NCBI GenBank assembly: GCA_900766265.1
Contig: CAAFUS010000013.1
Coordinates: forward strand, 255,940 to 319,939
Length of the DNA: 64,000 nt
Source: Pseudomonadaceae bacterium
GTDB lineage: Bacteria > Pseudomonadota > Gammaproteobacteria > Pseudomonadales > Pseudomonadaceae
Direction: 5' to 3'
The first letter of the stretch is position 1. Each line of letters begins with the position of its first letter. Below, piece after piece: positions 18,855 to 38,071 of this stretch. Below the pieces are notes generated by a model that was given only the letters and a program-made list of their open reading frames with translations, was not told the DNA's origin and made no database searches. Position numbers and translations under genes: made by a program.

Positions 18855-19283
18855 TTATTCAAGGTTAAGCAAGCTTCCATCCACCGAGGCTGAAAGGCAT
18901 GAGATATAAGTTAAGTAGTTTGAATTTCTCTTAACTAATATGCCATGCCTGGGCTCTTGGATGTCAGTAACCCTGTTGGTGCTGGATATCACTGTGTACG
19001 TATATCCGCCATTACTGAAGCTAATAGAGTTAGTCAGTTCGCTGCCAGAGGCGTTGCCTATTAAGATTTCAACCTCATCTAATGTTTTTTTTAATTCTAG
19101 CTCTGGTGGATGATTACGTCGTCCAAAAGTATAAGTAATCGTATCGTCGTGCTTATGTAGTTCGATGAGCTTGTTGGATTCCGTTGTGCAGCTGAAGAGG
19201 GGTTTAGGCTCGTCGATAGGCTTTGCCGCTAGAATGGACGAGAAAGCTAAAGTCAGGGCTAGTGCAAAATGCGAGATGTTCAT
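18855..19283 (-). CDS. Hypothetical secreted protein, AT-rich (candidate orphan T6SS immunity protein)
   Basis: 142 aa with a signal peptide (MNISHFALALTLAFSSILAA) and two Cys. Codon usage is markedly AT-richer than the flanking core genes. It lies at the distal end of the vgrG cargo region. Confidence 0.55.
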   Translation of the reverse strand: MNISHFALALTLAFSSILAAKPIDEPKPLFSCTTESNKLIELHKHDDTITYTFGRRNHPPELELKKTLDEVEILIGNASGSELTNSISFSNGGYTYTVISSTNRVTDIQEPRHGILVKRNSNYLTYISCLSASVDGSLLNLE

Positions 19284-20093
19284 TTGGCGATCGCTTGGTT
19301 AGTTATTGAAGATATCTTTGTCTTTTGGTTATTTTAATATCTGTGCTTTCCACAGTCTTTCAAAACTTTCCGTCTTGCTCGATAACTATCCGTATTTAGG
19401 TTCGCTACCTTTGTTATCGAGTCCACCGTCGCTGAAAAAGCACCTTTATCTGAAAGTTCGTACAGTCTATTTTATATCCAGAGATCTGCAGCCGATCGAG
19501 TGGCGTACTTCATGGTTAGTAAGAGATCGGGCTGCTCTGTAAAGTCCAAATCTTTGTCGGCTGGCCAATGTTAGTGAGCCGATTGTTCCAAGATGTCAGC
19601 GCTTCGTAATTGTGCCCTGGCTAGCTGGGCAGATTAATGTAGAACTATTGTCGGTATTAGGCGGCAATCCATGTTTACTATCCGGATTGAGCTAGCAAAA
19701 GTTAGTAAGATAGTTTGGCTTGTCGAAAAATATGCAGCTACAAAGATGACTGCAATCACGGTACAGCGGTTGACAAGCGCGGCGACCCTAGCAGGTATTA
19801 GTTTCTCCCTTCCAGATTATTCATTTTGATTCGTATCTTTTGTAGTAAGGTTTCGCCTCCTCTTGAAGGTCTTTCCCTCAGAGAACGTCGGCTATGTTCA
19901 GTAAAAGTACGGTGCGCTCAGGCGCAATTTTTTCAACGTTTCGAAGTACTTGAAGTGCTAGATCAAAGTCGCTCGCTTCAGCTAGCGCGTAAGTGTTTAT
20001 TTATCATGCATTGTAGTTGGCGTGCTCGGCTCTAGTTCCGATAGATTCGAGAGGCTCGGCAGGCACGTTTTATTGATAAATTCGTCCCATATG

Positions 20094-20417
20094 CTATAGG
20101 CTGAGAAACATAGCCAGGCAGGGTGCGTCTTCCCTTGGCGTCAATGCCGGCTCGCTGTTGCCGCTGATCGCTTGCTTGAGCTTGAGAAACGCGCCTTCAA
20201 CTCGAGGCGCGGATCTGGGCGCCTTTTCTGCGCTTGCCTACAACCGGCCCATTTATTCGGGCTCAGATCTTACGTTGAGTTCACCGCTGCGGGTGCTGAC
20301 GGTATAGATGCCGGAGCCCCAGAAGGCCGTCCGCTCGAGCTTCTCGTCCTGACGATAATCCTCCCAGCACTTGAGGTGCATGTACAGGCTGTACAGGGTC
20401 AACACCGGCGGCTTCTT
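20094..20417 (-). pseudogene. Frameshifted remnant of a paralogous M23-like T6SS effector gene
   Basis: My translation gives three pieces in three frames. They are KKPPVLTLYSLYMHLKCWEDYRQDEKLERTAFWGSGIYTVSTRSGELNVRSEPE*, INGPVVGKRRKGAQIRASS* and VEGAFLKLKQAISGNSEPALTPREDAPCLAMFLSL*. They align colinearly with residues about 126-236 of the intact effector (PPRLTLYSLYMHLQDWAGYQ...AFWE...VRAS...EGEYSKLVSLINGTANPPLT). Confidence 0.6.
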
Positions 20418-21227
20418 TTACTTATCGATATCTAATGACTTGTTGGTGCATTCAAGAGTGTCTTTGCACTGTATCCATCCCTTAATTCTTCCTTTTTTCT
20501 TGTTGTGGAACACGGCTTCCAGCCAGCCTGCCCTTTGACCAACTATCAGCACCTCGTCGTCAGGTATTAAATATTTTGAAGTTTTGTCCGCGACGTTGGG
20601 CTGGCTGTATAAATATGTTTTATCCAATATGCGCGTAGTGATGTGTTTTTGTTCGAACCAAGCTTTGTATTGCGCGGAAGATAATCTGCTTTGAATGGCT
20701 GCTTCGGATTTGTAAGGATGTTCGTACACAAGCTTATCGCTCATGGGTGATGACAGGACGTCCCCTCCCGCACCGAAGTAAGCGCTGATTCGCTCGCTTC
20801 GTTCGTACGTCAGTGGAGCTAGGCTCTTGTATACCAGCGTTGTGAAGTAGTCTGAGCCGTAGCTGATGCCGGTATCGGAGTAAAGAGTCGTTCTATGAAT
20901 AACGAAGAGTTCTGCATTACCATCGAAGTCTGAGTCTGCCAAAAAAGCGCTCTCCACTTCCCCAGGGTCGCCAAGATAGGGGAGTTCTGCGAACTGAGTT
21001 TTGCTTTCAGAGCCGCACTCCTGCGCCACTATGACGATAGGAAAAATATCACCGTGTGGATCAACCGAAATATCTGATTTTATGAAGCGTATTACAGTGT
21101 TTTTATTCTGTGAGATAGGGCTGTATATATCATCTGCAGACCTCTGCATGCAGGTCGAGCTAGCATAGGATGTGTTCAGTGCGGCGGCAAGAATAATTGC
21201 GCATGGTAACTTGTTGGCTGCCATCAT
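20418..21227 (-). CDS. Periplasmic candidate immunity protein for the 815-aa effector
   Basis: The ATG at 21227 overlaps the effector stop (ATGA). It has a signal peptide (MMAANKLPCAIILAAALNTSYASS), is 269 aa, is AT-rich, and has an SH3-like C-terminal stretch (GWLEAVFHNKKKGRIKGWI). Confidence 0.6.
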   Translation of the reverse strand: MMAANKLPCAIILAAALNTSYASSTCMQRSADDIYSPISQNKNTVIRFIKSDISVDPHGDIFPIVIVAQECGSESKTQFAELPYLGDPGEVESAFLADSDFDGNAELFVIHRTTLYSDTGISYGSDYFTTLVYKSLAPLTYERSERISAYFGAGGDVLSSPMSDKLVYEHPYKSEAAIQSRLSSAQYKAWFEQKHITTRILDKTYLYSQPNVADKTSKYLIPDDEVLIVGQRAGWLEAVFHNKKKGRIKGWIQCKDTLECTNKSLDIDK

Positions 21228-23671
21228 TCGGAGCAACTTCCGTAAAGTTCAATGAAGGTCTTAGTGATCTCGCGTTTGAACTGCTTTCTTTCTGTGAGGC
21301 CTTTCGTTCCACCGTTAATAACTCGTGTGATTTTTTCTACGGCAGCATCTTCGGTTAGGCTGGTATCTTCGGCGTGGGCTTTTAGTCTGTTGGCTTTCCA
21401 AAACCAAAGTCCCGTCTCTACAATTGTTGCAACATCACTCTGTGCCAGTGTAGGTTCCGCGTCGATCGGCTTTCCTATTGCCAAGGCGCACGTATGATAG
21501 TTCGAGTAATGTGTGAGGTGGAGTAAGCCACGTCCTCGATAATCATTGTCTGGGTATTCGTTACTACCAAAGCAATGCCGGCCATATCCTGCGTCGTTCT
21601 TCAGTAGATGATCTTCGATATATTTAAGCTTTGCTGCATGGGTGGCAAAGGTCAATCCTTTCCGAGTGAAGCCATTGTTGATTGCCGTAGGCGCCATATC
21701 ATATAGGTCTTGTGCTGTGTAGCTAGAGTAGTAGAGCGACTCGCGAAATGCAGTAAATCTTTTTGTTTCGTGTTTGGCTTGTGCGAGTAAATGGGTTACT
21801 TGAGCGCAGGAATTTATTTCGTATTTCTCAAAAAAGCTGTCAGTGTGTAGGATAAACTCTTTGATGAAGTCGTCTGTTGTGCTGCTTGGGCATATTTCTT
21901 TCATCAGTTCATAGGTTATAGAAATGCTCTTGTTGCATTTCGAGCATTTATTTTTTCCGTTTCTCGTGAGGTTGGCGGCGAGCATGGGGGGATGTAGGTG
22001 CCAAGCTAATCCAGCTCCGTTAACCCCATGATGCCCCGCCAGTTCTTTCCACCAGCTCAGCTTTTCAATCCTCTGCTTTTCCACTTCCCATATTGGATTC
22101 GGCTTATCAGGTTCTTCCGCCAGCAATGGATCGAGTTCATCCCACTTACCCTTGTTCCAGAACCATTCGCTTTCGTACTTAGTAATCAACCGCCCGAGCA
22201 TTTGGACGTGCCAAGGCTTGGAGAGCGCCACTCGGATTTCATGGCTGGTCAGCACGCCGTTCTGGTCGGTATCGACGATGTCGTACAGGCGAGCAAGCGC
22301 GACTATGGGGCCGCCATCGGCTCTGTTTATCTGGGCGCGGTAGTTGTGCTGTTCGTCTGCACTCAGCATGCCTTTGGCATTGAATGTGTAGGCGAGTTTT
22401 TCAAAGGGCGTTCCGGTTTCCTCGATGCACTGGAAATCCTGCCATTCCCAAGGGCTGTGGCGGGTGGTTATCAACTCTTGTTCGGCCAGCCAGCCGTCGA
22501 TGGGATTTCCGTTCTCGTCAGCGAACAATCCATCGAGCCGCCACCAGTGGGTTGTGCTTGGTGAGGCGTAGCCTTCGGCTCTGACCTGAATCTTGTTCGC
22601 CGCTGGCAGGCCATCCAGGAGTGCTTGGGGAATGATCAGGTCGACCCCGATCTGGCTTCCTTCGTCGCTGAGCTTGGGCGGATTTTCGGCATTGAAATCG
22701 TCTCGATGGGCGATCAGTTTGCTCGCGCCTTTGTAGACCTTGAGCAGGGTCTTTTGATCATCCGGCAAGCGGCTTGCCCAGGCACGACTACGAGTGATAA
22801 AGCCTGGCACGTCGTCGCAGCTGAATACTTCCAGATGAATAAGCGGATGAGCGGCACCATTGTGGTTTTGATAGATGCCGGGGTGGCCAATCAGCTCACC
22901 TGCCTTGATCGGAATACCTTCACCCAAAACCACTACCTGGCCCAGCTCGTTGGGCTCACTCCGAGCTTGCAAAAACTTGGAGGAAATGTAGCCGGGAAGA
23001 TTGCCTTCGCTATCGGCCGTGAGGGGTGGATTTGCCGTGCCGTTGATGAGGCTTACAAGCTTGCTGTACTCACCCTCGGTTGCCGTCACCGTAACTTCGG
23101 CTCCCTTGGTAATTTCCGATAGATTCGCAGAGTCTTTGTTGGCACTGGCGCGAACGATCAGACCCTGGCTCTGGGTATTGACGATATGACTCTTGACCTC
23201 CCAGAAGGCAGGCCGTGGCAGATCCGCTTTCGCCTGATAGCCGGCCCAATCCTGTAAGTGCATGTACAGGCTGTAGAGAGTCAGTCTCGGAGGTGTTTGC
23301 TCATCAGCTGCGTTGCCCTCGGCTTTCTTGGGCTGTGGCGGCTGAAGAGTGTGTTTGACCAGAACGAACCCTGTGGAAAACGGCGCTCGCTTGATGCTTG
23401 GGATTTCGTCGGTGAACTCGCTGACGGGATAGCTTTCATCGATACGGTAGGCAATCACCTCGCCATCGGCGATGCAGCGCACGCTCGATTGGTCGAATAC
23501 GGCTGCCGTGCCTTCATCGAAATGCACACCTCCATGCCATAGGCCATTCTCGCCGGTCGGGTAATAACCGCTCTTGGCCTTGGCCATATGGGTGAGAAGT
23601 TGCAGCGGATTACTGCCTACTTCCTTGCTGGGGAAGGGGTAAGCCCAGTTGATCGGTTTGTGTTCGGCCAT
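21224..23671 (-). CDS. VgrG-linked multidomain peptidoglycan-hydrolase effector (M23/LytM-like domain, EF-hand, GH19 lysozyme/chitinase-like C-terminal domain)
   Basis: M23-like motifs WHGGVHFD (aa 45-52) and IHLEVF (aa 278-283). Canonical 12-residue EF-hand loop DTDQNGVLTSHE (aa 467-478). GH19-like motifs AQAKHETKRF, YRGRGLLHLTHYSNY and VINGG in aa about 600-815. The gene starts 60 nt downstream of vgrG. Confidence 0.7.
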   Translation of the reverse strand: MAEHKPINWAYPFPSKEVGSNPLQLLTHMAKAKSGYYPTGENGLWHGGVHFDEGTAAVFDQSSVRCIADGEVIAYRIDESYPVSEFTDEIPSIKRAPFSTGFVLVKHTLQPPQPKKAEGNAADEQTPPRLTLYSLYMHLQDWAGYQAKADLPRPAFWEVKSHIVNTQSQGLIVRASANKDSANLSEITKGAEVTVTATEGEYSKLVSLINGTANPPLTADSEGNLPGYISSKFLQARSEPNELGQVVVLGEGIPIKAGELIGHPGIYQNHNGAAHPLIHLEVFSCDDVPGFITRSRAWASRLPDDQKTLLKVYKGASKLIAHRDDFNAENPPKLSDEGSQIGVDLIIPQALLDGLPAANKIQVRAEGYASPSTTHWWRLDGLFADENGNPIDGWLAEQELITTRHSPWEWQDFQCIEETGTPFEKLAYTFNAKGMLSADEQHNYRAQINRADGGPIVALARLYDIVDTDQNGVLTSHEIRVALSKPWHVQMLGRLITKYESEWFWNKGKWDELDPLLAEEPDKPNPIWEVEKQRIEKLSWWKELAGHHGVNGAGLAWHLHPPMLAANLTRNGKNKCSKCNKSISITYELMKEICPSSTTDDFIKEFILHTDSFFEKYEINSCAQVTHLLAQAKHETKRFTAFRESLYYSSYTAQDLYDMAPTAINNGFTRKGLTFATHAAKLKYIEDHLLKNDAGYGRHCFGSNEYPDNDYRGRGLLHLTHYSNYHTCALAIGKPIDAEPTLAQSDVATIVETGLWFWKANRLKAHAEDTSLTEDAAVEKITRVINGGTKGLTERKQFKREITKTFIELYGSCSE

Positions 23672-23731: not shown

Positions 23732-25786
23732 TTAACCGGAAAAGTTGAGCGAGCGCTTGGGTTTGCGAGGTGGATTGAGTACCTCGCCCGGCTGAGCCTG
23801 CTCCAGCAAATTCCCCGCCTTGTCCTTATCTGCCGCGCCCGGCAGCACCGGCGGCTTGATCTTGATGCCTGAGCCCTTGCCCGGCGCCCCGCCGGCGTTG
23901 ATCTTGATCATCGGGCCGCTGACGGTGATGCCGCCGGGGTCGAGCTTGATGAAGCTGCCGCCGGCGGTGAGGGTCAGTTCGATGCCGGCTTCGATGACCA
24001 TTTTCTGGCCGGCCTTGAGGTGGATTTCGCGGCCGGCCTTGGTCAGTTGGGCGGTGCCGAGCTTGGTGTGCTGGGTTTGGCCGACGGTGAGGTGGTCGTC
24101 GGGTTTGACTTCCACCTTGCGGTCGCCGGTGACGGTCAGGTGTTCCTCGGCCCGGAGTTCGGTGAAGCTTGCGGCCTCGACGGTGTCGTGACGTTCGTGG
24201 CCGACGCGGATCTTCTGGTCGTGTTCGATGTTCTCGTCCCAGTCGCGCTGGGCGTGGAGGTATATCTGCTCGGCGCCCTTGCGGTCTTCGATGCGCAGTT
24301 CGTTGTAGCCGCCACCGCCGGGCGAGCTGAGGGTCTTGAAGACGCTTCGCGTTTTGTTCGCCGGCAGGTCGTAGGGAACCTGATGCTCCTTGTGGTACAG
24401 GCAGCCGGTCACAAGTGGCTGGTCGGGATCGCCTTCAAGGAAGGTGACCAACACTTCCATGCCGACCCGCGGGATGGCGATGCCGCCGTAGCGGTCGCCA
24501 GCCCAGCTCGCGCTGACGCGTAGCCAGCAGCTGGTCTTGTCATCGGCTTGGCCGTGACGATCCCAGAAGAACTGGACCTTTACCCGACCGTATTCGTCGC
24601 AATGGATCTCTTCCCCAGCGGGGCCGGTGACGACGGCGGTCTGGCTGCCGAGCACCTTGGGCTTGGGATGCGTCAAGGCGGGACGGTAAGGGATGTCCCA
24701 GGGCGTGGCGGTGAAGTGGTTGCGGTAGCCCTGGGTAAATGAGGTGTCTGCTAGCGCTGGAGGAGAGGTGACTGATTCTTCGAGCACCTGCGGCTGTTTG
24801 CCTTCGTGCAGCACTTCGGTCAGCAGCCAGAGATCGTTCCATTCCCGGCGCGGGTGATCGGAGATTTCCAAGAGGTGCCCGCTGACCAGCTGAGGCTGGT
24901 CACTTTGACCTTCAGCCAGGCGGTAATCGGCGCGATGGCGTTCCAGGGAGCGCTGGGACAGGTGTTTGCCGCGGGCGCGATCGGTGAAGCGGCCCGGGTA
25001 GTCATAATCTTCGAGGTCCGGCTCCGGCGTTGTTTTCCCGTCCCCGGGTTGCCCCTTCTGCGCGGCCTCCATCACCAGTCGGGGTTGTTCGAAGTCATAG
25101 TCGCGCCGGCTTACCCGGGTGGTGCGGGTCTCCAGGCGCACGGAGAAGCGTTTGATTACCGGCTCGTCGGCGACCAGACCGCTGTCCTGCAGGTACGCGG
25201 TGGGTTGCCCTAGCTTGGCAAAGCCCGTCTGGTCATCACCGAACACCAGGACATGGCCTTGCGCGCTGTGCTCGAAGTGATAGTGGATACCTTCCTCTTC
25301 GCACAGGCGCTGAACGAAGTGCAGGTCGGTCTCGTCGTACTGGGTGCAGTAGTCCCGCTCGGGATAGACCACCGGGCCGAGTTGAAAGCGATAGGCGTTT
25401 GCCTGGATGCCGTGGCCCTCCAGCACTTGCGCGATGATCTGCGGCACGGTCAGGTGCTGAAAGATGCGCTGATCGGTGCGGTGTGCGAGATAGGCCAGTT
25501 GAGGGACGATAGCCAGCCGGTAACGGGTCAGGCGCTTGCCGGACTCGCCTTGGGCGACGCGGTGGATCAGCCCGTGGATGCCGTTGCCAGCCGGCGACAG
25601 CGCCAGAAAAGCCGGCTTATGCAGCAGGCTTTGCAAATCAATATCGGGCCGCTCGCTAATCAGTTCAAGGTCGAAGCGGAAGGGCTGGCTGATGGCCTCT
25701 CGCCCGCTGAAGGCGAGCACCTGCAGGTCGTGCTCGGCGCCCTCGATGGTGAGGCTGAAGGGGGTGTCATTGGCCGCGTTGAACAT
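23732..25786 (-). CDS. vgrG: T6SS spike protein VgrG (copy a)
   Basis: Typical VgrG N-terminus (FSLTIEG...LQVLAFSGREAISQPFRFDLELISE) and gp27/gp5-like core; 684 aa. The short Lys/Pro-rich C-terminal tail differs from copy b. Confidence 0.93.
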   Translation of the reverse strand: MFNAANDTPFSLTIEGAEHDLQVLAFSGREAISQPFRFDLELISERPDIDLQSLLHKPAFLALSPAGNGIHGLIHRVAQGESGKRLTRYRLAIVPQLAYLAHRTDQRIFQHLTVPQIIAQVLEGHGIQANAYRFQLGPVVYPERDYCTQYDETDLHFVQRLCEEEGIHYHFEHSAQGHVLVFGDDQTGFAKLGQPTAYLQDSGLVADEPVIKRFSVRLETRTTRVSRRDYDFEQPRLVMEAAQKGQPGDGKTTPEPDLEDYDYPGRFTDRARGKHLSQRSLERHRADYRLAEGQSDQPQLVSGHLLEISDHPRREWNDLWLLTEVLHEGKQPQVLEESVTSPPALADTSFTQGYRNHFTATPWDIPYRPALTHPKPKVLGSQTAVVTGPAGEEIHCDEYGRVKVQFFWDRHGQADDKTSCWLRVSASWAGDRYGGIAIPRVGMEVLVTFLEGDPDQPLVTGCLYHKEHQVPYDLPANKTRSVFKTLSSPGGGGYNELRIEDRKGAEQIYLHAQRDWDENIEHDQKIRVGHERHDTVEAASFTELRAEEHLTVTGDRKVEVKPDDHLTVGQTQHTKLGTAQLTKAGREIHLKAGQKMVIEAGIELTLTAGGSFIKLDPGGITVSGPMIKINAGGAPGKGSGIKIKPPVLPGAADKDKAGNLLEQAQPGEVLNPPRKPKRSLNFSG
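23880..25786 (-). repeat. Left copy of a ~1.9-kb direct repeat (vgrG paralogue core)
   Basis: By-eye alignment of 24181-24740 with 38591-39150 shows only scattered mismatches, roughly 85-90% identity. Similarity ends near the codons for GGAPGKGSG. Confidence 0.8.
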
Positions 25787-25807: not shown

Positions 25808-26800
25808 TCATCCATGGGTGCGCCCGAACCAGCGCTGCAGGCGGCTGGGTGCGGGACGGCGGAAAAGATCGAGCAGTTGGGCGACGCTGACATCTCGCTG
25901 CTCGGGCTCGAAAGCCAGGGCGCGGCGCAGTGCTGGCCAGCAATGGGGCGGTAGCTTGACCGGCCGCTGCAATTCCCTGCCTAGCGTCAAGGCTTTGGCC
26001 TGCTTGGCGCTCAAGCGGCGGAACGGGTGGCTGCCACTGGCGAGCTCATAGAGTAGACAGCCCAGCGCATAGAGGTCGGTGGCGACGGAGAGGTCACCGC
26101 CGTCAAGCAGCTCCAGCGCGGCGTAGCGGGGCGTCCAGGCAGTGAAACGGTTGCGTGCGAGGCGGGGCAGACTGGGCAGCACCCCATCAAGGGGTTGCCC
26201 GAGGCCGTAGTCGAACAAGCGCAGGCCGTCGGCGGCGAGCATGACGTTGCTCGGTTTGAGGTCGCCATGGATCACGCCGCGGCTGTGGGAATACTCCAGC
26301 GCTTCAAGGAGCGGCAGGGCGATATCGCGTAGCTCGTCCCAGGCGATGCCGTCCGGGCGCTCGCTGAGCAACAGGTCGAGGGTCGGCCCCTTGAGCAGTT
26401 CGAGCGTGATGAAGGCACGCTGGCTGGCGGCGTCCACGTCGAAGCCGAACAGTCGCACGACGTGGCGATGGTTAAGTCGGGCGGTCAACGCGAACTCGGT
26501 GTAAAGCAGTGCATGGGCGTCGGGGTACTCGGCGAAATCATCGCTCAGGGTCTTCAGCGCGACGTAGGGTTCCGGGTCGCCAAACTGTTCACGCAACAAA
26601 TCCCGAGCGCGGTAGACCGCGCCCATGCCGCCAACGCCCAGCAGTCGTTCGATCAGATAGCGTCCGCCCAGTACGTCCGGCAGGTCCTTGGCCGCAACGG
26701 CTGCGGCGGCCGGCGTTTCGGCCCTCGGAGAGGTAGCCGTGGCGGCAAAGGCGAAGTAGGTGAGGTCGGACGCCGGTTCGGCGCGTAGCGGTTCGATCAT
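25808..26800 (-). CDS. Short Hanks-type Ser/Thr protein kinase (Stk1/PpkA-like)
   Basis: Kinase motifs GGMGAVYRA, VALK, HGDLKPSN and DYG. The ATG at 26800 overlaps the phosphatase stop (ATGA). It is about 330 aa with no TM or C-terminal sensor domain. Confidence 0.88.
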   Translation of the reverse strand: MIEPLRAEPASDLTYFAFAATATSPRAETPAAAAVAAKDLPDVLGGRYLIERLLGVGGMGAVYRARDLLREQFGDPEPYVALKTLSDDFAEYPDAHALLYTEFALTARLNHRHVVRLFGFDVDAASQRAFITLELLKGPTLDLLLSERPDGIAWDELRDIALPLLEALEYSHSRGVIHGDLKPSNVMLAADGLRLFDYGLGQPLDGVLPSLPRLARNRFTAWTPRYAALELLDGGDLSVATDLYALGCLLYELASGSHPFRRLSAKQAKALTLGRELQRPVKLPPHCWPALRRALAFEPEQRDVSVAQLLDLFRRPAPSRLQRWFGRTHG

Positions 26801-27537
26801 CGCCGTATCACCACGGCGCTGAGGTTGTCTCGGCACGGGCCGTCCATCGCCTCTTCGAACAGCCGCTGCAACGCCAGGCCTGTCGAGGGTGAATTGAGCG
26901 CTACGCCGAGGCTGTCCGGCGACAGGCTCTGGTAGAGACCGTCGCTGCACAGCAGCAGGGTGTCGCCCGGATAAACGTCGAACTCCAGGATATCCAGCAC
27001 CAGCTGTTCGCTGGCGCCGATGGCCCGGGTGAGCGCGTGCGCGGCGGGATGGCGCGCGGCTTCCTCCGGGCTGAGGTTTCCCTCGTCGATCAGCTGCTGG
27101 AGAAGCGAATGGTCACGCGAAAGCTGATACAGGCGACCGCCACGCCAGAGGTAGCAGCGACTGTCGCCGGCCCATACACAGGCGGCGCGATCACCCTCCA
27201 TCATCAGGGCGACCACGGTGCTGCCAATCACCGGGTCGGGGCGATTAGCGGTAACGGTCAGCTCCTGCCCGAGCCGACGATTAAGGTCGTGCAGGCAGCG
27301 GCGCAGGCTGACCACGCGCTCGGCCAGGCTGCCAGCGGGCAGTTCAGCCAGGCGCTCGACGATCAGCCGGCTGGCGAGCGCGCCGTTCTGATGGCCGCCC
27401 ATGCCGTCAGCGACCACCCAGAGGCCTTGCTCGGGAAAGTCGAGAAAGGCATCTTCGTTTCGCGCGCGGACCTTGCCGGTATCGGTCCGCGCGGCACTGC
27501 GCCAGCTATGAGCCAGGCTTGTGGTCCCCGTCATCAC
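26797..27537 (-). CDS. PP2C-family Ser/Thr phosphatase (Stp1/PppA-like)
   Basis: PP2C motifs RARNEDAF, VADGMGGH and LLLCSDGL; 246 aa; overlaps the tssM stop by 4 nt. Confidence 0.9.
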   Translation of the reverse strand: MMTGTTSLAHSWRSAARTDTGKVRARNEDAFLDFPEQGLWVVADGMGGHQNGALASRLIVERLAELPAGSLAERVVSLRRCLHDLNRRLGQELTVTANRPDPVIGSTVVALMMEGDRAACVWAGDSRCYLWRGGRLYQLSRDHSLLQQLIDEGNLSPEEAARHPAAHALTRAIGASEQLVLDILEFDVYPGDTLLLCSDGLYQSLSPDSLGVALNSPSTGLALQRLFEEAMDGPCRDNLSAVVIRR

Positions 27538-30500
27538 AGGGTCGCCGGCAGCTTGAAGTCCCGTAGCAGAGCGATGTCGAACGGGTTCGGCGAGCGCTGG
27601 CTGTGCAGCAGGTAGTTGGCGTGGCGGCCGCCCAGGTTGGCCTTGAGCATCAGCACGTCACGTCCGCTGTGGTAGTCGACCTGCATCAGGTCCAGCAGGC
27701 GGAACAGCGACCAGGGGCCGGTGTTCTTCTCGATGCCGACGCGGCGACCACCCAGCTCTTCCACCACCAGGCTGGTACGGCCTTCGTCGGCATCGGCAGG
27801 CCAGCTGAAGGCGGTCTGCACGATCGGGCCGTGGCGGTATTCCATCTGCTGGTTGCCGAAACGGAAGTCGGCACGACCCAGGCTCGAGTCCAGCGAGTAG
27901 GGCTCGAGCTTGAAGCGGATCTGCGGCTCGTTCGGGTTCTCGGCGAAGAAGCTGCGGCGGATCGTCTGTGCATGGCCCATCTGCGCCAGGAACTCACGCG
28001 ACAGCGGCAGGCCGCGGCCGTCTACCCGACGTAGCTGATACTGGCCAGCGCTGCCGCTGACGAAGGGCTTGAGGTAACGATCGAAGAAGCCGTCGGCAAC
28101 GCCTTGCGCCTTGAAGAACTCCCGGAAGTCGGCAATGGCGACGTCGCTTTCGCTGTGAGCGCTGAACGGATAGCGCTGGCGCAGCGAACCCTTGTAGAAG
28201 GCGTACAGCTCGCTCTGGTAGCGCTGGTTGAGGTAGTGGTAGGCGTCGTTCAGGACCAGTGTCCAGCTGTCTTCGGCGAGCAGGCCGAGCCAGTTGCCGA
28301 TCGGTTGCGGCAGGCGGGCAGCACTCGCGCGTAGCTGGTTGATGGCGTCGCGCTGGCCGCCCATGCGTGCCTTGGCCAGCTCGAACGCAGCCTGATCCGG
28401 CGCGCTGGCGTGGGCCAGGCTTGCCAGTTGCAGGTGCAAGGCGTCGATGGCCTGCAGGGTCGGGACCAGCTCGGCGCTGGCGCCCGAGTTGTCGTCGAGC
28501 AGGCGGTGCAGAGGTTCGAAACGGCGTTCCAGCGTCTTGCGTGCGGTGTCCGGCAGATTCTTGGTCAGTGCCGCCTGGGCCTGCTCGGCTGCCGCGGAAG
28601 CCAGCTTGGCGGCCTTGCCCAGCTTGCCGTTGGCGTCCTTGAGCGCGTCGGCCGCTTCCGCTGCGTTACCGGCGGCGTCCGCTGCGCCGGCAAAGCGGGT
28701 GTTGTCGCGCACTTCGGCCAGCAACTGCAGCAGCGGCGAGTTGGCAGCGCTCAACCCGCTGAGCAGCACCGCGCCCTGGGCGGCGCCGGCGATAGGCTCC
28801 AGCGTCAGTTGCGCGACGGCCTCGCCCCAGTAGTTGGCATAGTCGCGGAAGTACAGCTGTTCCATCTCCACCATCAGGCGGCCAAGGTCTTTCAGGCTCA
28901 GGCTGTCACCCTCGCCGAGCACCCAGTTGTCGCGCAAGATGTCGCGAACCAGGTCACTGCCCTGGGCGATGTAGAACTTCTGGTAGCCGTTCTGGGTGTA
29001 GAAGCCGGGAATGGCATAGTCGCTGCCGTTGAACAGCGCGCCCTGCGGACCGAGGCGCTGGCTGAAACGGTAGTCGGGCAGGCTGCGGGCCTGATCGCGC
29101 AGCATGCGGTACACCACGTTGGCCAGCGATTCGCTGCGAAGCACCTTGCGCGCTTCTGTCACCAATTGCTCGTTGAGGCGATAGGGCGCGAAGTCTTCGC
29201 TGAGCAGCCGGTCGAAGTGGGTATTCAGGCCGTTCTGCGCCACAGCGTTGCCGGCATAGCGCAGCGACCAGTCGGCCGCCAGCCACTCTTTGAGGAAGGC
29301 CGTATCGCGGCGCTCGGTCAGGTTGAGCATGAGATAGGCGCGCAGGCTGCCGAGCAGGCGCTCGCGGTCGGTCAGGTTGGCGCGGATCTGAGCTTCGAGC
29401 TGGCGGCCGACCCGAGGCAGCAGGAGCTTTTCCAGCTCGCGGCGGTAGGCCTGATGAACCGTCGGATCGATTGCCTCGCCCTGGTAGAGCCCAGCGCGCT
29501 GCAGATAGGAGACTTCAGCCTTGGGCGGAAATACCCGGGTGGCCGCGTAGCTGGTGTCCAGCGCCTTGAGGGTGCGCAGCGCATCGTCCTGAGCGGTGAT
29601 GCCCTGGTTCTCGCGACCGAGCTGGTCGGCAAGGTTGCGCAGCTGTTCGAGTCGCTGGTGGTTGCCGGAAAAGCCGGTCGCCCAGAGCACGCCGAACAAG
29701 GCCAGGCAGGCGAAGCTGGTGGCATACAGGGCGCGCTGGCCCCAGTCGATCCGGCGCACCTCCTTCTGGTCCAGCCCGGCGAGGTCGGCCTCGGGGAAGA
29801 TGACCCGGCTCAGCAGGTGGTTGATGAAACGCGACCGGCCACTGCGGAAGGTCGGCAGCGCGCTGCTCGACAGGCCCAGGTTGCGCCCGATGCCGCTGGT
29901 CAGCGGGTCCAGCGCGTCCTGCAGTTGCGGCGCGCTGGTCAGGTAGAAGCCGCGTAGCTGGCTGGCGCGCTGGTAGCGATTGCCGGAGAACGCCAGCTCG
30001 ATGAACAGGCACAGGCGCTCGCCGATCTGGCCGAGCTGGTGGGGGAAGTCGAGGATGCGGCCACGGCGCTGGGTGTCGCGCTCCTGGTGCATGCGCAGGA
30101 TCACCTGGCTGTTGAGCCGGCGCAGCAGCTCCTCGAATTCGCCGCGGACCACGTTGGCGTCGGTGCCGTCCTGCTCCTTGCGGAAGCTCGCACCGAGCAC
30201 CTGGTCGCTCTCTTCGCGGGACAGCTGATCGAAGAATTCTTCGAAGCCGAGCACCTTGTCGGCTTTGCTCAGCACCAGATAGACCGGCACGTCGGCACCC
30301 AGGCGCTGGTGGATCTCATGCAGCCGCTGGCGACTCTGACGCGCCAGCGTCTCGAGCTCCAGTTCGCTCGATTGCAGCAGGTGCTCGACCGGGATGTTGA
30401 CCAGCACGCCATTGAGCGGGCGCGCGCGGCGGCGACGCAGCAGGCCCAGCAGCGTGTCCCAGGCCCTGCCGTCAACGGAGGCGTCGGGCTGGGTCAGGTA

Positions 30501-31073
30501 GCGACCGGCGGTATCGATCAGCACTGCATGGTCGGCGAAGTACCAGTCGGCATAGCGGGTACCGGCCACATCCCTGGTCAGGCGCTGGTTTTCGCCACGG
30601 TTGAGGGGGAAATCCAGTCCGGAGAAGTCCAGCAGCGAGGTCTTGCCGCTGCCCTGGGGGCCGAGCAGCAGGTACCAGGGCAGTTCGTTGCGCCATTTCT
30701 CGCTGCGCCCGCGGTACAGGCTCGAACGCTTGAGGGTGCGCATGGCGTCCCGGTAACGGTCGCGCAGGACGCTCTGCTCCTCGGTGATCAGACCCTCACG
30801 GCGCAGGCGCTCCTGTGCTTCTTCGTCGCTGGCCTCGGCCTGCTGCCTGCGGGTGCTGCGCCAGCTGGCGAAGACGATGAACAGACCCCAGGCCAGGCAC
30901 AGGCCGGCGATGGTCAGCAGGCGGCTGGTCGAGGATTCCCAGAACTTATAGTCGTTCACCGCCAGCAACGGACCGACGAACCACACCAGCAGGGCCAGCA
31001 CCAGCAGGACACACAGGCTCCATACCCAGGTCTTGCGGAAAAACGCGGCAAGCTTGCCGAAAAAAACCTTCAT
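27534..31073 (-). CDS. tssM: T6SS membrane-complex protein TssM (IcmF)
   Basis: 1179 aa, N-terminal TM segments, Walker A LLGPQGSGKTSLL, IcmF-like remainder. Confidence 0.95.
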   Translation of the reverse strand: MKVFFGKLAAFFRKTWVWSLCVLLVLALLVWFVGPLLAVNDYKFWESSTSRLLTIAGLCLAWGLFIVFASWRSTRRQQAEASDEEAQERLRREGLITEEQSVLRDRYRDAMRTLKRSSLYRGRSEKWRNELPWYLLLGPQGSGKTSLLDFSGLDFPLNRGENQRLTRDVAGTRYADWYFADHAVLIDTAGRYLTQPDASVDGRAWDTLLGLLRRRRARPLNGVLVNIPVEHLLQSSELELETLARQSRQRLHEIHQRLGADVPVYLVLSKADKVLGFEEFFDQLSREESDQVLGASFRKEQDGTDANVVRGEFEELLRRLNSQVILRMHQERDTQRRGRILDFPHQLGQIGERLCLFIELAFSGNRYQRASQLRGFYLTSAPQLQDALDPLTSGIGRNLGLSSSALPTFRSGRSRFINHLLSRVIFPEADLAGLDQKEVRRIDWGQRALYATSFACLALFGVLWATGFSGNHQRLEQLRNLADQLGRENQGITAQDDALRTLKALDTSYAATRVFPPKAEVSYLQRAGLYQGEAIDPTVHQAYRRELEKLLLPRVGRQLEAQIRANLTDRERLLGSLRAYLMLNLTERRDTAFLKEWLAADWSLRYAGNAVAQNGLNTHFDRLLSEDFAPYRLNEQLVTEARKVLRSESLANVVYRMLRDQARSLPDYRFSQRLGPQGALFNGSDYAIPGFYTQNGYQKFYIAQGSDLVRDILRDNWVLGEGDSLSLKDLGRLMVEMEQLYFRDYANYWGEAVAQLTLEPIAGAAQGAVLLSGLSAANSPLLQLLAEVRDNTRFAGAADAAGNAAEAADALKDANGKLGKAAKLASAAAEQAQAALTKNLPDTARKTLERRFEPLHRLLDDNSGASAELVPTLQAIDALHLQLASLAHASAPDQAAFELAKARMGGQRDAINQLRASAARLPQPIGNWLGLLAEDSWTLVLNDAYHYLNQRYQSELYAFYKGSLRQRYPFSAHSESDVAIADFREFFKAQGVADGFFDRYLKPFVSGSAGQYQLRRVDGRGLPLSREFLAQMGHAQTIRRSFFAENPNEPQIRFKLEPYSLDSSLGRADFRFGNQQMEYRHGPIVQTAFSWPADADEGRTSLVVEELGGRRVGIEKNTGPWSLFRLLDLMQVDYHSGRDVLMLKANLGGRHANYLLHSQRSPNPFDIALLRDFKLPATL

Positions 31074-33301: not shown

Positions 33302-33790
33302 TCAATTCCCCTTCACGAGCGGGTCGACGGCCTGGATGCCGCGCTCGTCGAGACTCAGCTCGATACGGTTCTGCGCCCTGTGCTGCAGGGGGACGACGAA
33401 ACGCCAGTTGGACTCCGGCAGGTCCCGGTAGGCGGCCAGCACGCCCACGTAGCGGCTGCCGTCCTGGACGAAGAGCTTGAGGTCGCGCTGCTCGCCGGGG
33501 CGCAGTTCCAGTTCCTCCTGGACCACCATGTCCGGCGACAGCGCTTCCTTGGGGCGCTGATAGAGCGAGAAGAAGTCGGCGTTCTCGAAGGCTACCGGGT
33601 GCTTGAGCTCGATCAGGCGGATCACGATGGGGGAGGGGCGACCGTTGAGGTCTGGGTTGAGCCGGTCGCTGCCCTGCAGCGACAGGTCGAGCTTGGTCAG
33701 CTCGGAATTGGGCGAGAGCGCCGAACAGCCGCCGAGCATGGCCAGCGCGGCGAAGACGGCCGCGGGGAAGAAGCGAGACATGGACATCAT
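33302..33790 (-). CDS. tssJ: T6SS outer-membrane lipoprotein TssJ
   Basis: Lipobox MLGGC and the motif RLNPDLNGRPSPIVIRLIELK; 162 aa. Confidence 0.92.
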   Translation of the reverse strand: MMSMSRFFPAAVFAALAMLGGCSALSPNSELTKLDLSLQGSDRLNPDLNGRPSPIVIRLIELKHPVAFENADFFSLYQRPKEALSPDMVVQEELELRPGEQRDLKLFVQDGSRYVGVLAAYRDLPESNWRFVVPLQHRAQNRIELSLDERGIQAVDPLVKGN

Positions 33791-34980
33791 CCTTGAAGGT
33801 CGGTGTTGAGGGTGGCGATGAGGCGTACCTGCTCCTCGTAAGCCTGGGCGAAGTCGCGGGCGAACAGCCGCTCGCTCCAGTCGTCGTCGCGCTGCATGGC
33901 CAGATGCATTCGGCGATAGGCGCGCCAGCGGCTGCCGGATGTGGCAATCAGCGGTTTGTTGTCGCGTTCGAAACGCAGGGCCAACTGGTCCGGCGAAAGC
34001 TGCTCGAGCATTCCCTTGAGTGCCGCGCGGCTGGCGGCCAGCATCGCCACCTGGTGCGCCTGCAGATCGCGAAAGGCGCGCCCGACGGCCTGTTCGGCGG
34101 GCAACTGACGGGGCGTGCCGCCGCGCAGCAGGAGCGCCAACGCTTCGCCACTGTCGATGCTGTGCTTGAGCGGGTTGTTGCCGGCGCTCTGGACGGTGGT
34201 CAGCGACAGGCGCATTTCGTTCTTCAGCTCGCCCCGGGTGCGCAGCGCCTGCTGCAGCCCGCCAACGCTCTGCCTGAGCAGGCTGGCGGCCTTCAGCGCC
34301 AGCGCCTGGCGGGCCTCTTCATCCAGCTCGTCCAGGTCGACGCCCAGCGCCTCGCCGAAGCGCGTCCAGAAATCAGGCGGCAGGCGCTCGGGCTCGGGCA
34401 CGGCCTTGGGTTGGGCGGCCGGCCTGGGCATGACCAGCTCGGGTACCTGCAGGTTCTCCTCATCGATCTGGGCATAGTCGCGCTGCTGGGCCTGCACCCG
34501 CGACGGCGCCAGCACGGCGGTCAGGTCGTCCACTTCGGCATAGACGCGCTCCTGCTGGTCCAGCGCGGTCAGTGGATCGAGGTCGAGAAACGCATCGTCG
34601 GGGATGATGCTGCCGGCCGGCTGCGGACGCCCGATATCTCCTTCGAACGACGCCGGGTCCTGGATCAGCCGTGCGCGAATTTCGAAATCACCCAGGCAGT
34701 AGACGCTGCCGTGCTCGATGCGCTGAGCCCGGCCCTTGTCCAGGCTGGCGCCGGTGTCCTTGAGCTGGATGCCATTGCTGCTGGTGTCGGTGAGGAAGAA
34801 TGCGCCGTCCCGGTAACTCACTTCGGCGTGGCGGCTGGACAACACGCGCTTGCGGTCCGGGATGACCCAGTCGCAATCTTCGGCCCGGCCAATGATGCCG
34901 CCGGCCTGCTTGAAGGTTTTCGTCGTCAACAACCCAGGCACGAACTGCTGTGCGCTGACCACATCGAAGACCAACTCCAT
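33787..34980 (-). CDS. fha: FHA-domain T6SS scaffold protein (Fha/TagH)
   Basis: N-terminal FHA domain (GGIIGRAEDCDWVIPDRKRVLSSRHAEVSYRDGAFFLTDTSSNG). It precedes tssJ with a 4-nt overlap and has AGGAG upstream of its ATG. Confidence 0.9.
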   Translation of the reverse strand: MELVFDVVSAQQFVPGLLTTKTFKQAGGIIGRAEDCDWVIPDRKRVLSSRHAEVSYRDGAFFLTDTSSNGIQLKDTGASLDKGRAQRIEHGSVYCLGDFEIRARLIQDPASFEGDIGRPQPAGSIIPDDAFLDLDPLTALDQQERVYAEVDDLTAVLAPSRVQAQQRDYAQIDEENLQVPELVMPRPAAQPKAVPEPERLPPDFWTRFGEALGVDLDELDEEARQALALKAASLLRQSVGGLQQALRTRGELKNEMRLSLTTVQSAGNNPLKHSIDSGEALALLLRGGTPRQLPAEQAVGRAFRDLQAHQVAMLAASRAALKGMLEQLSPDQLALRFERDNKPLIATSGSRWRAYRRMHLAMQRDDDWSERLFARDFAQAYEEQVRLIATLNTDLQG

Positions 34981-35645: not shown

Positions 35646-35990
35646 TCAAGCGAATATATTTATACCGAAATGATGGCCAAGAAAGCCAATAAACATGCTT
35701 ACCCAGTGAATGATAAGACTGATGCATGTGAAGTAAAGCCAGGCAGCCAGGGTGCGACCGACATTGGGCCTTTTTAAGCCAAAAGCGTATTGAAAACTAT
35801 AGCGGTGCATTCGGGAAAATCTGTCAAAAGGACTATGAGACTCCCATTCATAATTGGGAAGTCGAGAGAAATGTGGATCGAGCCGGCGTATTCCGTGGAA
35901 GCAGATGTAAATACCGTTGACGCCTCCGCTTACAAATAACAGAAACCATGCATAATAGAGGGCTTGCTTAAGCGTCAGGACGTCGCTCAT
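35646..35990 (-). CDS. Small inner-membrane candidate immunity protein for the LysM/glycine-zipper effector
   Basis: The ATG at 35990 lies 1 nt after the effector stop (TGAtATG). It is 114 aa with two strongly hydrophobic segments (ALYYAWFLLFVSGGVNGIYICF; LAAWLYFTCISLIIHWVSMFIGFLG) and is AT-rich. Confidence 0.6.
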   Translation of the reverse strand: MSDVLTLKQALYYAWFLLFVSGGVNGIYICFHGIRRLDPHFSRLPNYEWESHSPFDRFSRMHRYSFQYAFGLKRPNVGRTLAAWLYFTCISLIIHWVSMFIGFLGHHFGINIFA

Positions 35991-35991
35991 A

Positions 35992-37251: not shown

Positions 37252-38071
37252 TCAGACCAAGCAGGTCGGCTTCGATTCGAGCCAGCCGGTGCTCGGCAGG
37301 TTCGTCCATGTTAGCCAGTCGCATACGAACGTCTGGTTTGTTGATAGCGTCGGGAAACTGGAGCGCCAGCTCAACGTAGGCGAACAGGTGCTGCTCAGAC
37401 TCGATGCCGAACTTTTCAGCTTCTGCCGTACGCTGATGGATGATCTCTTTCAGCTCCACATCTGGTTGCCCGTTAAAGTTGTTAACGCAAAAGTGCGATA
37501 CCAAGCGCTGAATGAATAGCTGTCGCTCTTGTTCCTGCCAGCGAGCAAGGTGCTCCGCGCGAATCGAAAACCAGCCTTCGTCGTCGGCAGGTCTGGCGGG
37601 AGAGGAATAGGGCGTGGTGAAACCTAGCCATTTGTTTTCTTCGGCAGGTACCCATATTTTGCTGACAGGACCGAGCCAGGCGCTGAGTTCGTCTTGTGTG
37701 AGGCTGTCGAAGAAACGTTCGGTCAAGGCTGGGTCATAAAACCTGCAGAAGGCCAATTCTCCAGAGTGCAGCCTGACGCTCAGCAGGCTGCGCAAATGGT
37801 TCGCCAGGCCCTCGATGTTAACGGAGCTTTCCAAAAGCAGGCCTGACGATTGCCAACGCTCCCGGTTTTCCCACAAACGATGTTGTCCGGAGAGGCGATA
37901 CAAGGCGGGGCTGACTTCCAGCATGGACTCATGGCGCGTGCCTCGGTACAGAGGCTCTACCTTGGGTGCATCATCGTGCTGATAGATGACCTGCAAGGCG
38001 GGTAACGCCGCGCCATCGAGCAGCAGGTAGAGGTCGTCCCGCTCGATCTCCGGTTCTTCTGCTCCGCGCAT
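37244..38071 (-). CDS. DUF4123-family T6SS adaptor/chaperone (Tap/Tec-like)
   Basis: Motifs LYLLLDGAALP and CRFYDPALTERFF are typical of DUF4123. The ATG at 38071 shares one base with the vgrG stop (TGATG). It lies between vgrG and the effector gene. Confidence 0.75.
   Translation of the reverse strand: MRGAEEPEIERDDLYLLLDGAALPALQVIYQHDDAPKVEPLYRGTRHESMLEVSPALYRLSGQHRLWENRERWQSSGLLLESSVNIEGLANHLRSLLSVRLHSGELAFCRFYDPALTERFFDSLTQDELSAWLGPVSKIWVPAEENKWLGFTTPYSSPARPADDEGWFSIRAEHLARWQEQERQLFIQRLVSHFCVNNFNGQPDVELKEIIHQRTAEAEKFGIESEQHLFAYVELALQFPDAINKPDVRMRLANMDEPAEHRLARIEADLLGLNG

Follow-up and report, generated by a model that had tools for sequence, protein, structure and literature searches.

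A probable TseP-family effector with a C-terminal GH19 lysozyme domain and its probable downstream immunity gene in a Stutzerimonas type VI secretion cluster

Among the effectors of type VI secretion systems (T6SS), the closest described counterpart of the locus presented here is TseP of Aeromonas dhakensis SSU, a protein of 845 amino acids (aa) carried by VgrG2 (Wang et al., eLife 2025, PMC11893102). In a stretch of Pseudomonadaceae DNA of 64,000 nucleotides (nt) on contig CAAFUS010000013.1 (hereafter the window, meaning the whole stretch that was analysed), a gene for an 815-aa protein lies directly behind a vgrG gene and is followed by a gene for a 269-aa protein with a signal peptide. As suggested by our comparative sequence analysis, the 815-aa protein is very probably a bifunctional T6SS effector of the TseP family from a Stutzerimonas (S. 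nosocomialis-like) strain, with the 269-aa protein as its periplasmic immunity protein. The effector would thus be an uncharacterized member of a published family whose architecture is already known. An earlier reading of the window from its letters and open reading frames (hereafter the sequence-only reading) had not recognized this architecture as a named effector family, which proved mistaken, as it is the architecture of TseP (PMC11893102).

The N-terminal part of TseP (TseP-N, residues 1-603) is a Zn-dependent amidase that was modelled on the M23 peptidase 3SLU and releases tri- and tetrapeptides; residues H19, H23, H109, H339, H359 and E539 were mutated, and Zn-dependent amidase activity in vitro was reported for TseP-N and for the two homologues tested, AHA_1849 and PSPTO_5204 (PMC11893102). 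The C-terminal part (TseP-C, residues 604-845) is a lysozyme of known structure (PDB 8XCL) whose activity is abolished by mutation of E663, and the toxicity of TseP in the periplasm is lost once the lysozyme is inactivated (PMC11893102). Mutations in the predicted EF-hand had no phenotype and Ca2+ failed to restore activity. TseP-N alone restores T6SS assembly, a structural role that is independent of its amidase activity, and the immunity protein TsiP binds both halves of the effector (PMC11893102). The guanine-plus-cytosine (GC) content of the TseP-N part is about 10% above that of the TseP-C part and about 10% below that of vgrG, and the identity of TseP-N to its homologues in Pseudomonas and Stutzerimonas amounts to about 17-22% (PMC11893102).

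The effector of the window shares with TseP the vgrG gene directly before it, a length of about 800-850 aa, a predicted M23-like zinc site built of histidines, an EF-hand in the middle of the chain, a C-terminal lysozyme domain with two glutamates nine residues apart and a downstream candidate immunity gene. Both loci also show the same step-down of GC content from vgrG to the N-terminal and then to the C-terminal part of the effector. In the window, where the mean is 63.5%, the values are 63.5% for vgrG, 52.2% for the whole effector gene (54.9% for aa 1-590 and 45.0% for aa 591-815) and 46.2% for the immunity gene, in agreement with the earlier remark that both genes are richer in AT than the T6SS core.

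Family assignment and domain structure of the effector

The effector, its parts and its immediate neighbours are located as follows.

23732-25786, minus strand: vgrG, 684 aa, whose product presumably serves as the spike that carries the effector (TIGR03361, E 7.5e-207; Phage_GPD, Phage_base_V, Gp5_trimer_C)
21224-23671, minus strand: effector gene, very probably of the TseP family, 815 aa plus stop
23204-23584, minus strand: predicted M23/LytM-like domain, part 1, aa 30-156, with H46 and H50 in WHGGVHFD and H138 in YMHL
22940-23203, minus strand: predicted SH3b domain inserted in the M23-like domain, aa 157-244 (Pfam SH3_3, Foldseek)
22802-22939, minus strand: predicted M23/LytM-like domain, part 2, aa 245-290, with H263 in IKAGELIGHPG and H279 and L277 in PLIHLEVF
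21875-22801, minus strand: Trp-rich conserved middle region, aa 291-599, without a Pfam match and with low AlphaFold2 confidence
22235-22273, minus strand: EF-hand loop DTDQNGVLTSHEI, aa 467-479, satisfying PROSITE PS00018 at every position
21227-21874, minus strand: lysozyme domain of glycoside hydrolase family 19 (GH19), aa 600-815, with the catalytic pair E635/E644 (PF00182, PDB matches, BLASTP to TseP-C)
20418-21227, minus strand: probable cognate immunity gene, 269 aa (Sec signal peptide, ATGA overlap, co-occurrence)

The identification of vgrG is unambiguous (TIGR03361). Only 60 nt, without an adaptor gene, separate its stop codon from the effector gene, and the effector has no signal peptide. 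Public assemblies hold the exact effector sequence, and the representative of its 98%-identical cluster is annotated as 'glycoside hydrolase family 19 protein' of Stutzerimonas nosocomialis. A phmmer search with aa 1-590 returned at least 1,015 cluster representatives (50% identity), and a relative is encoded in at least 510 species genomes. A vgrG gene lies within 120 nt upstream in 34 of the 69 related loci with enough flanking sequence, and within 1.3 kb in 17 more.

The connection to TseP runs through members of this family. The N domain of the window protein matches relative P0174, which is UniRef A0A246F5G2, at E 1.9e-103 (phmmer); A0A246F5G2 is hit 104 in the TseP-N Foldseek list of PMC11893102, a list that also holds GH19 proteins of S. 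stutzeri. P. taeanensis A0A0A1YIQ8, from the TseP-C list of the same paper, appears to be our relative P0054, with which it agrees in species and name. Furthermore, the Stutzerimonas member P0038 combines an N domain about 72% identical to that of the window with a C domain 48% identical to TseP-C (E 3e-60). The spacing of the TseP histidines (4, 86, 230 and 20 residues) equals that of the family motifs HxxxH, YMH, GHxG and HxE in members with a double SH3 insertion, and it maps H19, H23, H109, H339 and H359 of TseP onto H46, H50, H138, H263 and H279 of the effector.

By its sequence, the C-terminal domain is a GH19 lysozyme homologous to TseP-C in which both predicted catalytic glutamates are kept. 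The PF00182 profile scored 33.0 bits against a gathering score of 25.5, the match covering only profile positions 87-158 of 232, and the above-threshold score together with the catalytic glutamate pair places the domain in the GH19 family. Among PDB sequences, aa 606-802 matched 9eoi (E 2e-11), PWe1 (E 8e-10) and the SPN1S endolysin (E 3e-7), and plant GH19 chitinases were also found, with weaker matches than the peptidoglycan hydrolases. The GH19-like domain proposed earlier is thus confirmed by an above-threshold profile match and by endolysins of known structure. E635 and E644, the latter a second catalytic glutamate that the sequence-only reading had not mentioned, align to the glutamates of the HES and VEN motifs of 9eoi. 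The phmmer search also matched 8xcl_A (E 7e-5), which carries the PDB name 'EF-hand domain-containing protein' and is the crystal structure of A. dhakensis TseP-C. Most of the TseP-C sequence was recovered from an 8xcl alignment and used as BLASTP subject, which gave a match at E 2e-9 with 24% identity over 186 residues; here 'HETKRFTAFRES' pairs with 'HESN-FKPVSEN' of TseP, so that E635/E644 correspond to E654/E663. A search of a large protein collection with 221 residues of TseP-C gave a best match of 56% identity and did not return the A. dhakensis protein.

The motifs quoted in the sequence-only reading were all found at the residues claimed, namely DTDQNGVLTSHE (467-478), AQAKHETKRF (630-639), RGRGLLHLTHYSNY (712-725) and INGG (785-788), as were H46, H279 and E635. 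Its proposal of a VgrG-linked, peptidoglycan-targeting effector with three recognizable modules is likewise upheld by our data. The N-terminal, M23-like module was the weakest of these claims. On the effector core, M23 models were not found with Pfam or NCBIfam (PF01551 gave nothing at E<=1), and a hidden Markov model (HMM) profile of 21 diverse N domains, run with HMMER against PDB sequences, gave marginal SH3b matches and no M23. AlphaFold2 modelling of aa 1-590 from 67 sequences reached a predicted local distance difference test (pLDDT) value of 63.7, low around H46 and in aa 398-503, and Foldseek with this mediocre model against the PDB gave SH3b matches only and no M23.

These searches pointed to an SH3b domain inserted in the M23-like domain, a feature absent from the sequence-only reading. 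Pfam SH3_3 (PF08239) matched aa 170-235 at E 3e-5 with 24.5 bits, just below the gathering score of 27, and Foldseek aligned the domain to the SH3b nuclear magnetic resonance structures 2kt8, 2krs and 2kyb with probability 0.99-1.0 and template modelling (TM) scores of 0.68-0.75. For SH3_3, 17 of 53 relatives also pass a limit of E 1e-3. The inserted domain probably binds peptidoglycan.

The M23 relationship was recovered once this insertion had been excised. The family alignment was compared by hhalign with an M23 reference alignment of lysostaphin (100% identical to PDB 4lxc), LytM and five canonical M23 domains taken from N-terminal extensions of family members. With the intact family alignment, hhalign gave a local match on the last M23 motif only (P 3.1e-4, probability 40%), whereas with the SH3b part (aa 150-244) excised the match extended over 98 columns and took in every M23 motif in the proper order, at a probability of 92-93% and P 3.6e-7 to 8e-7, a result that held across three excision boundaries. 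The real alignment scored 48, compared with 15.5 for a reversed template and at most 16.2 for 29 of 30 column shuffles; the remaining shuffle produced an aberrant 15-column match with a score of 138, which is regarded as a numerical artefact. In the excised alignment, H46 takes the place of the His of HxxxD and H50 that of its Asp, H138 corresponds to the catalytic His of Y-x-H-L, and H279 to the zinc-binding, second His of HxH, with L277 in place of the first. Across 53 relatives with 26-48% identity to the window protein, no more than 18 positions are invariant; H46, H50 and H138 belong to them, and H279 is conserved at 90% or more. The N-terminal region therefore falls outside M23 by Pfam criteria, while the profile comparison suggests an M23-like fold in which the metal site is retained in altered form: an M23/LytM-type domain, split by the SH3b insertion, appears to have kept a metal site of three residues (H46, H50, H279) together with one catalytic His (H138).

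Matches to PF01551 occurred in 8 of the 53 relatives. They were considered as proof that the core itself belongs to M23 and were rejected, as they probably arise from extra N-terminal domains, in which the significant M23 matches of a small lysostaphin/LytM model fall. Six relatives (P0268, P0247, P0188, P0252, P0212 and P0215) carry such an additional canonical M23 domain, with intact HxxxD and HLHFE, in an N-terminal extension of about 140 aa before the core, and thus hold two M23-type domains together with the C-terminal toxin domain.

The middle of the protein carries the EF-hand loop. A match to PS00018 arose in 0.26% of 20,000 shuffles of the effector protein, and the pattern recurs in 105 of 119 close relatives and in 59 of 131 distant ones (164 of 250 in total). 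The Pfam model EF-hand_6 is weak on the effector (13 bits) and significant in 5 of the 53 relatives, down to E 1.8e-5. By analogy with TseP-N, aa 291-599 may serve as a VgrG-binding or structural part. Conservation stops near aa 575, at ..KLSWWKELAG.HG..AWH, and the relatives diverge beyond this point. The C termini of 53 representatives matched GH19 (10), pesticin-like muramidase (7), the PF11860 muramidase (3), GH108 (2), T4-type lysozyme (1), Hydrolase_2 (1) and NlpC/P60 (1), the rest being without a match.

The downstream gene and its association with the C-terminal domain

The TGA stop codon of the effector overlaps the ATG (21227) of the 269-aa gene as ATGA. The encoded protein begins with a typical Sec signal, MMAANK-LPCAIILAAALNT-SYA, with the cleavage site predicted before SS (…LNTSYA/SS), and belongs to a family of 43 clusters, all annotated as hypothetical, in which four Cys are invariant. 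Pfam, NCBIfam and PDB sequence searches were all without a match for this protein. AlphaFold2 gave a model with pLDDT 85.3 and a predicted TM score (pTM) of 0.81, consisting of a beta-rich domain followed by a C-terminal SH3-like domain; Foldseek matched SH3 domains to the last 60 residues only, and no whole-chain match was obtained at E<1e-3.

To follow the partnership, 88 loci were compared (80 from a scan of GTDB species genomes, which returned none from Aeromonas, 7 from look-ups and the window itself), and their C domains and next downstream open reading frames (ORFs) were clustered. The GH19 subtype of the window was followed directly by the 269-aa family in 16 of 16 loci. Over all pairs of loci, the downstream family was shared by 140 of 298 pairs with the same C-domain cluster, as against 12 of 2552 with different C domains. 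In Burkholderia, Luteimonas, P. fluorescens and P. putida, the module of GH19 domain and immunity gene stands behind N domains that are 29-42% identical to that of the window, and the C domains are more similar than these (49-58%). Because of the ATGA overlap, the signal peptide and the strict co-occurrence with the C-domain subtype, the 269-aa protein is probably the periplasmic immunity protein of the effector, an assignment that we make jointly with that of the effector to the TseP family. The coupled signal-peptide gene had been proposed as the immunity gene from the overlap, which is confirmed, and its constant pairing with the GH19 subtype agrees with that proposal.

About 30 unrelated downstream families accompany the one conserved N domain. 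A common domain among them that might bind the N domain was considered and rejected, the SH3-like C-terminal domain being shared by few only.

Variants of the pair were encountered among the loci. In L066 and L067, a downstream protein of 422 aa holds a whole domain of the 269-aa type at about residues 185-418, behind an extra N-terminal part. The 422-aa protein accompanies another GH19 subtype cluster and may represent a fused or double form of the immunity protein. In L005 (Pseudomonas sp. YJ42, CP178378.1), a GH19 pair of the same module has no VgrG detected upstream and is preceded by metabolic genes and a gap of about 1 kb, and this pair may be orphan or relocated.

Proposed mode of action and alternative explanations

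By analogy with TseP, the effector would bind, with no adaptor in between, to the tip of its own VgrG and would be fired into the periplasm of a neighbouring cell. There, the GH19 domain would hydrolyse the glycan strands as the main lethal activity, and the Zn-dependent N domain, anchored by its SH3b insertion, would strip stem peptides as an amidase. The N domain would also aid T6SS assembly, as described for TseP-N, and the 269-aa protein in the periplasm would block the GH19 domain, so that sister cells survive.

Several observations weigh against this reading. The N domain is connected to TseP-N through family members, published lists and histidine spacing and not by direct alignment, which leaves the relation a putative one. 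The M23 relationship is invisible to Pfam, NCBIfam, HMMER against the PDB and Foldseek, and was recovered only after excision of SH3b. The Leu in place of the first His of HxH and the His in place of the Asp of HxxxD may mean that the chemistry differs or is absent. Finally, variation in the immunity gene follows the C domain alone and offers no hint of toxicity in the N domain.

The same observations bear on the alternative that survives best, according to which the GH19 domain alone is enzymatically toxic and the M23-like/SH3b region is a non-catalytic or non-toxic part that serves to mount the protein on VgrG, to support T6SS assembly and to attach to peptidoglycan, comparable to the degenerate LytM domains of EnvC and NlpD. 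In its favour, the toxicity of TseP is gone when the lysozyme is inactive, and TseP-N's structural function is independent of amidase activity (PMC11893102). The loss of one M23 catalytic His (L277) points in the same direction, as do the tracking of the C-domain type, not the N domain, by the downstream family and the lack of a domain common to the roughly 30 unrelated families. However, degenerate LytM domains typically lose residues of their metal site, whereas here H46, H50 and H138 never vary, and H279 is conserved at 90% or more, in relatives down to 26% identity. Moreover, TseP-N and its two homologues are Zn-dependent amidases in vitro (PMC11893102). On balance, we consider a toxin of single activity rather unlikely.

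A bifunctional TseP-type effector could also differ from our proposal in the bond that it cuts. The sequence-only reading had suggested that the N-terminal module cleaves peptide cross-links and that Ca2+ may be required, which amounts to a classical M23 DD-endopeptidase controlled by Ca2+ at the EF-hand. The profile similarity to lysostaphin and LytM, both endopeptidases, and the conservation of the EF-hand loop are consistent with such an enzyme, and modulation by Ca2+ was proposed for PSPTO_5413 of P. syringae in 2020 (PMC7283901). Nevertheless, TseP-N frees tri- and tetrapeptides and is an amidase, Ca2+ did not rescue TseP, EF-hand mutants of TseP had no phenotype (PMC11893102), and the site reads H/H/H with LxH as against the canonical H/D/H. 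Given TseP-N's amidase activity and the catalytic His missing here (L277), cleavage of cross-links finds no support; neither does Ca2+ dependence, as in TseP activity was not restored by Ca2+ and EF-hand mutations were without a phenotype, and we regard this alternative as distinctly improbable.

That the protein has no interbacterial role and is a secreted GH19 chitinase directed at fungi or nutrition, or a housekeeping or prophage-derived lysin next to an unrelated gene, agrees with its public annotation ('glycoside hydrolase family 19 protein / predicted chitinase') and with the plant GH19 chitinases among the PDB matches, but is highly improbable, as GH19 peptidoglycan hydrolases of phages and bacteria, together with TseP-C, rank first among its matches and the effector lacks a signal peptide. 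In the window as in most relatives, moreover, its gene follows vgrG directly within a T6SS cluster, and its coupled periplasmic partner co-varies with it.

Cassette exchange, genomic context and comparison with known systems

Downstream of the immunity gene, remnants of a second effector were detected, which the sequence-only reading had not reported.

20007-20420, minus strand: N-domain stub of a second TseP-family effector, residues about 124-272, starting from the stop codon of the immunity gene (tblastn, family HMM)
19332-19614, minus strand: frameshifted C-terminal remnant whose toxin domain is of another type, shared with P0025, P0026 and P0049 (HMM, E 7.6e-8)
18855-19283, minus strand: intact orphan immunity gene, 142 aa, with signal peptide (similarity to the P0025 partner)

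The N stub is about 40% identical to all 120 listed relatives (tblastn, down to E 1e-20) and matches positions 124-222 of the family HMM at E 2.4e-26. The C-terminal remnant is about 80% identical to aa 719-813 of P0025-type proteins over some 95 residues, split across frames. The 142-aa protein is 75% identical (E 3e-82) to the product of the gene directly downstream of the intact P0025 in locus L001, another Stutzerimonas genome with the same tssM-pppA-ppkA-vgrG context, and by this similarity the 142-aa gene appears to belong with the decayed effector. Between the two remnants, at 19614-20007, lie about 400 nt of very AT-rich DNA (GC about 0.43) without a match to the family profile; this interval corresponds to the loss of about 500 codons of the old effector. 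Our data indicate that an older effector was replaced by the present effector-immunity cassette and that the old immunity gene was retained.

The N stub is also present in close S. nosocomialis relatives (94% DNA identity), which carry a different segment in place of 19602-18804 of the window. This segment (L006/L007, 10068-10954) encodes in L007 a 133-aa LprI-domain protein (L007:10117-10518). Such strain-specific segments downstream of the effector pair show that the region is variable between strains. In S. degradans, the 142-aa gene stands behind a GH19 pair of its own.

The locus evolves by exchange of C-terminal toxin and immunity cassettes behind a conserved N-terminal part. It is quite conceivable, if slightly short of an even chance, that the N-domain family as a whole serves a large polymorphic-toxin system, akin to Rhs and contact-dependent inhibition (CDI) systems, as its delivery chassis. 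The M23-like/SH3b/EF-hand part would then recombine with GH19 subtypes, pesticin-like and DUF3380-type muramidases, GH108, T4-lysozyme, NlpC/P60 and unknown folds, each C domain would travel with its own immunity gene, and displaced stubs and orphan immunity genes would pile up downstream. Since immunity tracks the C domain only, the conserved zinc site of the N domain would, in such a system, act without a dedicated immunity protein, and its activity would be harmless to kin or some general protection would exist. The 269-aa protein would in turn represent a new structural class of GH19-lysozyme inhibitor.

The pair is part of a larger T6SS cluster, in which the order on the minus strand is tssM-pppA-ppkA-vgrG-effector-immunity gene and a second island of cargo genes is found.

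27534-31073, minus strand: tssM
26797-27537, minus strand: pppA (PP2C phosphatase)
25808-26950, minus strand: ppkA (Ser/Thr kinase)
37244-38143, minus strand: DUF4123 adaptor, second island
35992-37251, minus strand: 419-aa protein, second island, with an N-terminal LysM domain and no further Pfam match
35646-36068, minus strand: overlapping 140-aa ORF, second island

Besides ppkA and pppA (25808-27537), the same cluster encodes a forkhead-associated (FHA) protein with T6SS_FHA_C at 33787-34980 (minus strand). The cluster is a T6SS regulated by threonine phosphorylation, of the P. aeruginosa H1 / P. syringae HSI-II type. The second island (35646-40167, minus strand) is also low in GC (0.52-0.56) and lies behind a second vgrG (38071-40167, 698 aa); it probably comprises another, adaptor-dependent cell-wall effector and its immunity gene.

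The effector-immunity pair by itself adds little. Publications on the TseP family date from 2021 and 2025, and its authors had already listed homologues from Pseudomonas and Stutzerimonas. What is new here is the linked swapping of C-terminal toxin domain and immunity gene and the decayed second effector with its intact orphan immunity gene; taken with the unannotated immunity fold, the exchange of cassettes and the orphan immunity gene are of value, though the advance is incremental. The locus serves better to illustrate, with a case from nature, the diversification of the family, in which one conserved N-terminal part is combined with exchangeable domains of lysozyme type and with the immunity genes that match them. 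Strains that retain orphan immunity genes are expected to withstand toxins that they no longer make, a point of relevance to competition among strains of Stutzerimonas, clinical S. nosocomialis among them. The 269-aa family could be a new type of inhibitor for GH19 peptidoglycan hydrolases, which are of interest as enzybiotics. Furthermore, the tracking of the C domain alone by immunity sharpens a question that concerns TseP as well, namely whether the amidase part is a toxin at all.

Compared with known enzymes, the N-terminal region shares with the M23 metallopeptidases (lysostaphin, LytM, NMB0315/3SLU, ShyA) the motifs YP.G.NG.H.G.D, ADG.V, Y.HL, V.AG..IG..G and HLHFE, in this order once the insertion is removed. 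It differs from them by HxxxH for HxxxD, by LxH for HxH and by the SH3b domain between Y.HL and V.AG; judging from TseP, the bond expected to be cut is the amide between N-acetylmuramic acid (MurNAc) and L-Ala and not the peptide cross-bridge. Among solved structures, the sequences nearest to the C domain are those of GH19 peptidoglycan hydrolases from phages and bacteria (SPN1S endolysin 4OK7, 9EOI and PWe1 9MS6; E 2e-11 to 3e-7), with which it shares the glutamate pair and the RGRG..T and INGG motifs. Unlike the effector, GH19 endolysins are stand-alone proteins of about 200 aa that are released by holins, without fusion to a T6SS delivery part and without immunity proteins. An attack on both the glycan and the peptide parts of peptidoglycan by one bifunctional T6SS polypeptide is reportedly also performed by Tse4 of Acinetobacter baumannii. 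Its folds and chemistry are said to be different, combining a lytic transglycosylase with an endopeptidase, and to our knowledge it is not homologous to the effector described here.

Closer in gene order is PSPTO_5413 of the HSI-II cluster of P. syringae pv. tomato DC3000, a proposed cell-wall-targeting effector (Chien et al. 2020, PMC7283901). Compared by description only, it shares the tssM(icmF)-pppA-ppkA-vgrG layout followed by an EF-hand protein with a lysostaphin-like (M23) domain; it differs by a gene for a tetratricopeptide repeat (TPR) lipoprotein between vgrG and effector and by colicin/peptidase predictions for its C-terminal toxin domain, and toxicity was not seen upon its ectopic expression (PMC7283901). 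An experimentally established effector-immunity pair is SARI_02625/SARI_02624 of Salmonella pathogenicity island 21 (SPI-21) in Salmonella enterica subsp. arizonae (PMC12992299, 2026). Like the window protein, SARI_02625 is a T6SS effector in which an EF-hand and an M23-type motif are combined with a peptidoglycan glycosidase at the C terminus, and its bicistronic partner SARI_02624 measures 276 aa and has a Sec signal peptide. SARI_02625 is distinguished by its length of 1,032 aa, by an annotated M23 motif placed after the EF-hand and by an endolysin of the T4-lysozyme type (E-D-T triad) instead of GH19.

Hence, TseP offers the fullest comparison, and within the shared plan the two effectors differ in detail. 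The effector carries one SH3b insertion where TseP, judging from its histidine spacing, probably carries two, and TsiP is likened to the 269-aa protein by layout, not by sequence. The C domains are about 24% identical and represent different GH19 subtypes, whereas the TseP-C subtype is carried by P0038 and other Stutzerimonas members.

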